NCBI GenBank assembly: GCA_039621445.1
Contig: CP154954.1
Span: 19,826,642-19,890,641 of the forward strand
Source: Euglena gracilis
Taxonomy: Eukaryota
Reading direction: 5' to 3'
DNA: 64,000 nucleotides
Position 1 is the first letter of the stretch, and the number at the start of each line of letters is the position of its first letter. Position numbers and translations under genes: made by a program. Positions 19,054 through 22,000 of this stretch are shown piece after piece. The notes beneath the pieces are model-generated. The model worked only from the letters and a program-made list of their open reading frames with translations. It was not told where the DNA came from and did no database searches.

Positions 19054-22000
19054 GGCTTCTGCTCCGCGGGAGCAGATCGGTGCGCTGCTGGAGGCGGAGA
19101 ACCTGACGGTGGGGGCCGAGCTGGGGGTCCAACCCAGGGCTGGGCCCCACCCAGGACTGTGGCTGTTTTTTTTGGTTCACACCCGTAATGGTCAATCGAT
19201 CTGACCAAAAAAATGAGGGGGAAGGTATGCATTTTAGCCCTGCCACTCCAGCCATTTCAGTGCCGGAAACGTGTGCGCCTGCAAGTCCCGCCCTCTAACT
19301 TCGTTGTGCTTTTTTTGGGGGGAGTGGGTTACCTCTATTGTTCGCAAGACTGCACACAAAGGACAACTGACTCTTGGATACTGCCATTCCCGAGAACCCA
19401 TCAAGCTCCAACCTGGGAAACTGCCAGGGCCGAGCTGGGTTCCCGGCGGACCTGTCATCCGGTCGAGGTGGTCACGGCCCCCAGCACTGGCGGTCCCGTC
19501 GAGTGACAGTCTCCGGCCCAGCCCCGCCCCCGGAAGGCCTCTTTGCCGCCCAAACCCTCTCGCAGTGGCCCGCCTGCCGGCGGTACTACCTCGTGGACCT
19601 GTGGCGGCCCCAGGAGAACTACGAGGAGCGCGCCAACGTCCCCCTCGCGCAGCAGGAGCGCCACCTGCGCAACGCGCGCCGCCGCCCACGGCTGTGGGTC
19701 GGCCACCGTCCTCCTGTGCCACCGCCCGAACACACACTCAAACGTGTTCACATGTGAACGTTTTGGGCAATCCATTTTTACAGCTGTGTTTTTTTGTGCT
19801 TTTCGATTCTTGCAGAATTTGTGTTTTTTTTGGTTTTCTTGCAATTTTTTTCCTGACAATTTTTTTTATCTCTGCTAGGTATTTTTTAGAGAAAAATTCC
19901 GATTTTCGGATCTCATTTTTCCCTGAGACCAAAAGTTTTGTTGTTTTTTGTCGTTTTTTTCTCCGAATTTTTTTGCCAACAAATTGCATTCTTCTGACGC
20001 AGCATGTTCCCAAAATTTAACCAAAAATATCTGCACTGATTTTTTTCTGGAAGCACAGATCATGCATTTCAGTGCCAGTTCGCCAGCCTGACAACCTTTG
20101 ACCATGGTTTTTCCTGCACTGAAATGTTTTCTGGCAGGACAAATCATACATTTGAGTGCCAGGTTGCCATGGGGTGGGTGGCCCTCCCATACAGCCCTCC
20201 TCCCAGGTGTGGGCTGGTCCATATGTTCCCCAAGGAAACTCACTTTGCAAGGAACTGGGGGCAGGAATATGAGGCGGGTGTATTTTTTTTATATTCAACA
20301 CTTTTTGTCCCCCCTCCCCGTGCTGACTTCACAAATTTTGGTTGAATTTATTTGACGATTATTTTTTTTGGCATTTTAGCAGGCTTTGTCAAGAAATGAG
20401 GATAAACCTGTTTACATTTTCCCTGATGATGATGGTGGTGGTGGTGATGATGATGATGGTGGTGATAATAATAAATTGCATTTCATAAGCCCTGTACACA
20501 AGTGTGGCAGCTGCAGCAATTTGGCAACCCATATCATCATCAGCAGCAGCAGCAGCAGCATCAGCAGCATCAGCATCATCATCATCATCATCATCATCAT
20601 CATCATCATCATCATCATCATCATCATCATCATCATCATCATCATCATCATCATCATCATCATCATCATCATCATCATCATCATCGTCATCATTGCGAGC
20701 TTCTGCCTTTTGATACAGACGTCATTCAGTTTTAAAACAAAACGCTTTCCTTGGTTCAAATTCGCCAAAAGCATCTTGCCAAGGTTTCACAGGAACGTCA
20801 AAATCATTTGTACTACAGCGCCAACAAGGTCCAATGCAGCTGCAGTTGCTTGCTTGTGGCATTGCCATCCTCCTCGGGGGGAGAGGGGGTGGGTGGGCCG
20901 GTGGGTCCGCCGGAACCCCCTCTTGCCTCCGAGGGGGGGGGGGTCCCGGCCGGAGGCTTGGGTATGGATTTTGGCGCGCAGAACCAAAATTTTTTTTGAG
21001 GAAATGCCTTTAGACAGCCCGATTTTGGGAGTGGGGGGACCCCCCTCCCCCCTGGGGTCTTACAAGCAGCCTGTCCTGGGCTTTCCCGTGGGAAAGGAGA
21101 AAGTCTTTCATTTTGCGAAAATGGTTTCCTCGTTTCATTGGATTTGTATGCATTTTTTTCGAGAGTCTCCCTCAACTTCCATTGTTTGATAACTCTCTCC
21201 CTGACCTCTTCCCCATTGCATTTGCATGAATGACTTTTTCCCGGGCATTTCTTCACATGTTTGTGTGATTTTGATTTGATTTTGATTTTGTCTGATGTGT
21301 GATTCTGGCCGTTTCTTTCTCCAGACTTGGACAGGCCAGCCACGTTCTGGTTGTTGCTTTTTTTTTGCGCCCAAACCTGCCACGGCTGTGCCCGCTGACT
21401 GCGACCCTTCAATGACACGGTGGTGTTCCTCCGGATGTCCACCAGCGAGGCGGCCAACCATATCCCAGACACCGCAGCCGCGTTTTCGGTGCTCGTGCCA
21501 TGGAAACGCTTGCAAGCTTTCTTTGTGCTAGCTTTGGTGGCTCATGGTAGCGCGGAAGGATGCTGTAGCCAGAACGATGCTGGACATCGCCAAGGATGTG
21601 TCGCGACACCTTTTGCGGCTGTGGCAGGTCTGGAACAGTGGCCGCCACTCCAAACCGGGGCTGTGCCCCGAGTCCCTCGACTACGTCTACATCGATGCCC
21701 GGCACGACTACTGCGGGGTGAGCGAGGACCTCCGGAACTACTGGCCCAAGCAGGCTTGTGCTTAGTCGGGGGCCCACCCCACGGGGGGGGGGGGCTAGGG
21801 GCAGGCACCCCACAGCACCCACCCCCCTCCCCGGTTGGTAAGCGCAAGCCTGGGCCCAAGGTGCGGCCGGGGGGCATCTTCGCTGGGCACGACTTCTACT
21901 TCGCCAACCACTCCATCCTGGGGAAAGACGACTGACGGGGCGGCCACCGCATACCGTTGGGCCGTGGTTGAGAGACGACTGGATTTCAGGGGACTCTGAT

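Follow-up and report, generated by a model that had tools for sequence, protein, structure and literature searches.

We report here that a MITE (miniature inverted-repeat transposable element) of 102 bp, which lies within an exon of a methyltransferase gene of Euglena gracilis, is very probably removed from the messenger RNA (mRNA) by the machinery of non-conventional introns, together with one copy of its 8-bp target-site duplication (TSD), the splice code's two spacers (3 nt and 5 nt) adding up to the length of that duplication. The gene lies in a 64,000-nucleotide stretch of contig CP154954.1 (assembly GCA_039621445.1, positions 19,826,642 to 19,890,641 of the forward strand), hereafter called the window, and all coordinates given are those of the window. 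The origin of the non-conventional introns of euglenids has been debated since the 1990s, and the locus directly supports the older idea that these introns arose from transposons.

The element is flanked at both ends by identical copies (8/8) of the octamer GGCCCAAG (Table 1). Its terminal inverted repeats (TIRs) are 14 nt long and matched at 13 of 14 positions (93% complementary). The element is thus short and non-coding, with TIRs and a TSD, as a MITE should be. In the minimum-free-energy RNA fold both arms were placed in one stem (-76.9 kcal/mol, z=-2.3). Retention of the element would stop the methyltransferase reading frame four codons inside it.

The host gene was identified through a 288-aa transcript-derived protein (P0001), the source name of which marks it as a Euglena gracilis transcript. 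In a tblastn comparison P0001 aligned with the window in ten exon pieces, from 17665 to 24142, with 95-100% identity, and its residues 54-172 matched the Pfam family Methyltransf_24 (E=2.4e-14). The full protein was needed for this match, which fell below threshold when exon fragments alone were searched. The insert falls between codons 160 and 161, within the Methyltransf_24 domain. The flanking exons encode ...DYCGVSEDLRNYWPK upstream and VRPGGIFAGHDFYF... downstream, which are contiguous in P0001, and the protein runs uninterrupted across the insert site (...NYWPKVRPGGIF...). The remaining four residues of P0001, RSSQ, are encoded by a 13-nt micro-exon at 23908-23920, and the introns on its two sides (23559-23906 and 23921-24073) are non-conventional, both exactly N3-CAG..CTG-N5|G. 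An in-frame TGA at 21396-21398 was rejected as a stop codon of this gene; it includes the last intron base, and the junction 19683->21397 gives P0001 without mismatch.

Removal of the element was followed in raw reads of three RNA sequencing (RNA-seq) runs (X21, X22 and X24) and in one contig set (X15), over the region 20700-30200. The joint 21742->21853, which skips 110 nt (102 + 8) with 8 ambiguous letters, was supported by 18, 8 and 4 reads in X21, X22 and X24, respectively, and by an X15 contig of depth 176. The joint of the neighbouring intron had 23, 20 and 6 reads in the same three runs. Total depth at 21771, inside the element, was 1, 1 and 5, and most of these reads, which carried a mismatch, probably come from other copies of the element. 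The stranded RNA run placed the transcript on the + strand. A first-pass annotation, made by a model from the letters of this DNA, had described a 102-bp element with CAG...CTG TIRs and a perfect 8-bp duplication at 21743-21860, inside a methyltransferase coding sequence, and had proposed that it is removed with exactly one TSD copy. All these features were found at exactly those coordinates, the methyltransferase host was confirmed by the domain match and continuity of P0001, and the 110-nt skip in three RNA runs bore out the removal.

An allele that the element never entered could also yield the joined RNA, as could somatic excision of the element at the DNA level, with no splicing of the insert-bearing transcript. 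We consider this quite improbable. Two methyltransferase alleles are indeed expressed, which differ at 21739 (T/C, Tyr/His) and 22303 (G/T, Arg/Leu), each accounting for about half of the RNA reads; P0001 combines the window's base at 21739 with the other allele's base at 22303, and the transcript-derived proteins deviate from the window at a few residues. However, the polymorphism at 21739 lies only 4 nt upstream of the insert, where the window has T. As C was found in 11 of 22 X21 reads, at least 7 of the 18 X21 joint reads must carry the window's T, and depth just inside the element was a single read in that run. Thus, the insert-bearing haplotype is spliced, provided that there is no insert-free T haplotype besides it. 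When hAT-type elements are excised from DNA, footprints usually stay behind instead of one clean TSD copy, which counts against somatic excision. The element moreover satisfies a splice code that was found sufficient for removal in E. gracilis by knock-in (PMC12501133).

This code, 5'-N3CDG-/-CH'GN5-6|R, was defined genetically in E. gracilis by knock-in mutagenesis (Nomura et al. 2025, PMC12501133). It allows a 5' spacer of 3 nt only, takes 5 nt as the 3' spacer while tolerating 6 nt, and prefers that the next exon open with a purine. We checked all 9 mRNA-compatible registers of the 110-nt intron. None of them was GT/GC-AG, and register k=5 alone fitted the code, as N3-CAG...CTG-N5|A. The 110-nt intron is therefore like the euglenid introns from which the code was derived (PMC12501133), in that it is absent from mRNA, lacks GT-AG in any register, has paired ends and, in register k=5, carries CAG and CTG 3 nt and 5 nt from its junctions and is followed by a purine. 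With an 8-bp TSD, what a 3/5 cut leaves in the mRNA is 5 nt from the left copy and 3 nt from the right one, which join into one intact copy. Since 3+5 equals the duplication, the cut removes exactly what the insertion had added (102+8=110 nt) and the reading frame is restored. This arithmetic had been put forward in the first-pass annotation; it holds for both young inserts described here and fits the published spacers, and what it accounts for is the sum of the spacers, the 3/5 split being left unexplained.

The 102-bp element is one of three copies of a MITE family in the window, present at unrelated loci and each with its own duplication. The six termini of the three elements align as C[A/G]GGCTTNYGYTT, with positions C-GGCTT--G-TT invariant, and have a common subterminal block. 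The third member (57957-58240) has flanks without coding signal. The second member lies in a coding exon of another gene, the exons of which, mapped with a 224-aa transcript-derived protein (P0002), span 49634-53082. P0002 is contiguous across the insert site (...DVRDARLPQSSLHPQYQG..., also read as ...DVRDARLPQSSLHPQYQGLAKVVQ...), thereby indicating that 436 nt (428 + 8) are missing from the transcript. This 436-nt intron has no canonical register, and the register that fits is N3-CAG..CTG-N5|T; the other four introns of the second gene are canonical GT-AG. Thus, two of the family's three copies lie in exons and are absent from the transcripts, as judged for the second copy by P0002, so that, as with introners, several copies serve as introns in different genes; spliceosomal removal at GT/GC-AG sites, which also marks introners, was not found, as neither exonic copy offers a canonical register. 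Matches to the family end motif in metagenomes were rejected as chance, as there were 119 stretches with one match each and none with a partner end and a matching octamer.

Direct repeats of 8 nt may also arise when a staggered double-strand break is repaired with filler DNA, rather than through a transposase. A newly gained intron of E. agilis, gapC intron 4, present in one strain, is young and non-conventional with eight-nucleotide junction repeats, as is the intron described here, and was interpreted as a product of break repair (Milanowski et al. 2016, PMC4770533). For gapC intron 4 no repeat family is reported in the accessible text of that paper, whereas three copies with different 8-bp repeats are present here. 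Three unrelated loci have the same ends of 13-17 nt and the same subterminal block, next to an 8-bp repeat that differs from locus to locus, and several further CAGG-ended families in the window show 8-bp duplications too, which is the signature of transposition. Break repair is therefore a very improbable source of these repeats.

The length of the duplication was determined by scanning the whole window for CAG...CTG pairs, 30-3000 bp apart, with arm identity of at least 10/12. The scan returned 158 candidates, 6 of which had flanking octamers at least 7/8 identical, where mismatched flank pairs would lead one to expect 0.18. The signal was specific to the register flush with CAG/CTG, and shifts of 1-4 nt left 0-1 cases. 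Perfect flush flank repeats were found for 4 pairs at k=8 and for 0 at k=9. The excess of matching octamers, seen in the flush register only and at k=8 but not at k=9, shows that the duplication is real and 8 bp long. In total, about 11 elements with 8-bp duplications were present in the 64 kb, and 9 of the 11 start with C[A/G]GG. One of them (56947-57361) is probably a third exonic insert, because its flanks show strong in-phase periodicity of GC at third codon positions, resembling known exons. A search for a transcript-derived protein covering this flank found none. Continuity of open reading frames (ORFs) across excised elements proved uninformative in this GC-rich DNA; it missed the true frame of the methyltransferase insert. 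Two further elements have CAT/CAA ends (33004-33464 and 55047-55406) and should not satisfy the CDG/CH'G splice code. They were chosen by eye from the k=8 list of a generic scan for TIRs with flanking repeats, by requiring arms of at least 10/11, no low complexity and a position outside the tandem array 30211-30670. The reversed-sequence control of this generic scan was invalid, as reversal keeps both kinds of repeat, and its counts were not used.

Table 1. Features of the methyltransferase insert, its family and other elements with terminal inverted repeats (TIRs) and 8-bp target-site duplications (TSDs) in the window
Feature	Position	Strand	Remarks
Upstream methyltransferase exon, continuing into left TSD copy	21670..21742	+	P0001 tblastn; RNA joints 21469->21669 and 21742->21853
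Left TSD copy	21743..21750	+	GGCCCAAG; in the 3/5 register first 5 nt are exon, last 3 nt the N3 spacer
MITE, 102 bp, non-coding, CAG...CTG ends	21751..21852	+	Core of methyltransferase intron 5
Left TIR CAGGCTTGTGCTTA	21751..21764	+	Inverted-repeat search
Right TIR, reverse complement CAGGCTTGCGCTTA	21839..21852	+	Inverted-repeat search
Right TSD copy	21853..21860	+	GGCCCAAG; in the 3/5 register first 5 nt are the N5 spacer, last 3 nt open the next exon (A, purine)
Downstream methyltransferase exon	21861..21933	+	RNA joints; P0001 tblastn
Second family member, 428 bp	52589..53032 (element 52597-53024)	+	Perfect 8-bp TSD GCGGCTAC; in coding exon of second gene
Third family member, 284 bp	57949..58248 (element 57957-58240)	+	Left end mutated to CGG; TSD GTCTTTTC/GTCTTTTG, 7/8
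CAGG-ended MITE, 172 bp	10106..10293 (element 10114-10285)	+	TSD 7/8
CAGG-ended MITE, 305 bp	17289..17609 (element 17297-17601)	+	Perfect 8-bp TSD TCCCCTGC; 55 nt upstream of methyltransferase start codon
CAGG-ended MITE, 225 bp	43732..43972 (element 43740-43964)	+	Arms 12/12; perfect 8-bp TSD CCCTGAAC
Degraded CAGG-ended MITE	51412-51649		TSD 5/8
CAGG-ended MITE, 415 bp	56939..57369 (element 56947-57361)	+	Arms 12/12; TSD 7/8
Degraded CAGG-ended MITE	62511-62611		
Element with CAT/CAA ends	33004-33464		Perfect 8-bp TSD; arms 16/17
Element with CAT/CAA ends	55047-55406		Perfect 8-bp TSD; arms 10/11

The superfamily of the CAGG-ended elements was considered next to these data. hAT elements have termini CAG or TAG, short arms and the target consensus nTnnnnAn. 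Of 9 TSDs in the window, 3 have T at position 2 and 4 have A at position 7, and no clear target consensus of the hAT type is seen. The window has 21 ORFs that reach 220 aa, and no ORF is longer than 295 aa; 18 of the 21 were scanned with Pfam, and none of the 18 matched a transposase domain. The elements are like hAT MITEs in their 8-bp duplication, which is a hallmark of hAT elements (PMC8721813) and is seen here as perfect repeats at k=8 and none at k=9, and in their short inverted ends starting with CAG; they are unlike them in that no hAT transposase accompanies them among the 18 scanned ORFs and the target consensus is not evident. The label 'hAT-like', resting as it does on TSD length and CAG ends, is a reasonable guess. 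It is possible, though we doubt it, that they are non-autonomous derivatives of another superfamily with 8-bp TSDs, such as Merlin or P-like elements, in which case the relation 3+5=8 would still be real. Two Merlin families with 8-bp TSDs have been reported in the E. gracilis draft genome, and Merlin is described as having a terminal 5'-GG-3' and TIRs of 24-462 bp (PMC8101967), whereas the elements in the window have CAG...CTG flush with the duplication and arms of 11-17 nt. Such short CAG arms with an 8-bp TSD match hAT elements.

To see how far the arithmetic reaches, we compared 15 introns in the two genes, determined from RNA reads or transcript-derived proteins; 11 of these are non-canonical. 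None of the ten methyltransferase introns is canonical, and six of the ten fit the code, introns 2, 5, 7, 9 and 10 at 3/5 and intron 8 at 3/6. The C[A/G]GG start of the MITE ends is shared by five of the six. The comparison of flanking octamers suggested by the first-pass annotation, carried out here on the two genes, gave 8/8 identity in both MITE introns and 2-3/8 in the four older introns at 3/5, and matching octamers were present in only 2 of the 11 non-canonical introns. The general claim of the annotation, that non-conventional introns are MITEs, is not demonstrated by these two genes.

Several observations weigh against the proposed relation between insertion and splicing, at this locus or as a general rule. 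At the locus itself, an insert-free allele could contribute part of the joined reads, and since the 8-nt slide makes all 9 registers give an identical mRNA, the cut register is unreadable from RNA. For the second member the sole evidence of intron status is the transcript-derived protein P0002, which differs from the window at a few residues and for that reason may come from another allele or strain; the exon after its N5 opens with T and not with the preferred purine. Among the methyltransferase introns four of ten lie outside the 3/5-6 code (introns 1, 3, 4 and 6); intron 3 is N3-CAC..GTG-N6, intron 4 has a spacer sum of 10 and intron 6 is N3-GGG..CCC-N6. The four older 3/5 introns score 2, 3, 2 and 2 of 8 in octamer identity, which is the chance level. 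Such loss of identity is what decay predicts, because at every position compared one base is exonic and its counterpart is intronic and free. With chance-level older introns and four introns that do not fit, the general rule is undemonstrated here, and the data of the window cannot establish MITE ancestry of old introns. Moreover, as a 6-nt 3' spacer is tolerated, the machinery does not measure exactly 8.

The spacer sum may equal the TSD length by coincidence or through a filter, the splicing geometry being older and only CAG/CTG families with 8-bp TSDs surviving in exons. The tolerated 6-nt spacer (PMC12501133) would fit such a history, as would those methyltransferase introns that are spliced with spacers adding up to 9-10 and helices other than CAG. 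The two elements that combine 8-bp TSDs with CAT/CAA ends also fit it, since they show that TSD length and splice motif are separable. On the other hand, CAGG-ended elements with 8-bp TSDs also dominate the non-coding DNA of the window, where a splicing filter does not act, and the C[A/G]GG start of five of the six code-fitting methyltransferase introns is that of the MITE ends. We regard coincidence or filtering as unlikely. The reading in which non-conventional splicing is a precise excision at the RNA level, matched to one transposon superfamily and having spacers of 3+5=8 for that reason, is put forward tentatively, as an idea that may well be right and yet falls a little short of being probable.

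From the anatomy of the locus, the course of events may be pictured as follows. A short, non-autonomous, CAGG-ended transposon would have inserted in the methyltransferase exon with an 8-bp staggered cut. In the pre-mRNA the inverted ends of the MITE are predicted by folding to pair. Going by the published genetics, the machinery would recognise the paired CAG/CTG and cut 3 nt upstream and 5 nt downstream, this precise register being the presumed one among several that the 8-nt slide leaves equal. Ligation of the exons restores the frame, as the RNA joint and P0001 show at the level of the product. The 8-bp TSD may be the evolutionary reason for a spacer sum of 8, and spacers that differ by 2 nt would be in keeping with a duplex-measuring nuclease. 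As to enzymology, RNase III-type cleavage with ligation, or a route resembling tRNA splicing, has been proposed (PMC12621601). Euglenid non-conventional introns are described in the literature as leaving the transcript in the form of RNA circles, by a route other than the spliceosome (work cited in PMC11282704 and in PMC12621601).

Other features of the two genes and of the window were noted in passing. Within the methyltransferase gene, intron 3 (19684-21396) contains an (ATC) microsatellite at 20533-20693 of about 54 units. In the 697-nt non-conventional intron 7, the region 22602-22960 has very high contig depth and G/C-run palindromes common to several MITEs, which suggests that it holds nested repeat fragments. 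Non-canonical introns at 24231-24575 and 24714-24982 are probably in the 3' untranslated region, because they lie downstream of the methyltransferase stop codon; for the first of them, the RNA runs used above contain three alternative junction pairs, which skip 343, 337 and 335 nt. In the second gene, the region 50348-52210 holds a GT-AG intron of 1855 nt that lacks inverted ends but whose junctions likewise carry a direct repeat of 8 nt, TTCAGGTC; this repeat may be splice-consensus similarity plus chance. Nested in the intron is the degraded CAGG-ended MITE at 51412-51649. Elsewhere, in the tandem array 30211-30670, a 19-nt unit containing imperfect palindromes is repeated about 25 times, and the array gave many false hits in the generic scan. 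A 722-bp element at 4466-5187 has inverted ends TGTGTTTGG... together with a direct repeat of 10 bp, CCAATTGCAG, and may be a member of another transposon superfamily.

A MITE origin of these introns was proposed in 2014 (PMC3935182), and a review of 2024 treats CAG/CTG as part of the TIR and the junction repeats as 'TSD-like' (PMC11282704). The 2025 study that defined the code (PMC12501133) gives 84.4% as the share of all introns with direct repeats, sets the 'slidable' introns aside and calls the origin of the non-conventional introns unclear, whereas in the intron described here the slide is exactly 8 and equals the TSD of a multi-copy MITE. The introners of Micromonas and other algae and the TIR/TSD introns of Amoebophrya, as reviewed in PMC11282704, are likewise MITE-like, create introns and have the duplication in the junction. 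Their duplications are of 3-5 nt and they use a spliceosome, in part modified, at GT/GC-AG-type or relaxed sites, in contrast to the 8-bp duplication found here and to removal by the CAG/CTG hairpin code, which does not look spliceosomal. A full-text search of the literature, with supplementary tables outside it, returned nothing that equates the sum of the spacers with the length of the duplication, no hAT assignment for these introns and no identifiable multi-copy MITE family shown to supply spliced introns; the supplementary tables of PMC12501133 and PMC4770533 may bear on slide or repeat lengths. The arithmetic link between spacer sum and TSD length is thus a modest but useful new explanatory step.

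The locus provides a concrete case in which a recognisable multi-copy MITE in an exon is removed from the mRNA with one duplication, and in which, because the spacer sum equals the duplication length, exonic insertions are harmless. If non-conventional splicing is indeed such an excision system, every exonic CAGG-ended insertion would be silent from the moment of landing, and most non-conventional introns, the 'slidable' majority included, would be decayed MITE copies; the 2-nt spacer difference would then be the trace of a 2-nt 3' overhang produced by a duplex-measuring nuclease, and the distribution of slide lengths would have a discrete mode at 8. The MITE hypothesis thereby becomes quantitative, with expectations of a slide-length mode at 8, of young introns in CAGG-ended families and of an autonomous partner with the same ends. 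The 'slidable' introns, which were excluded from the published motif analysis, may be the ones most informative on the origin of the non-conventional introns of Euglena.

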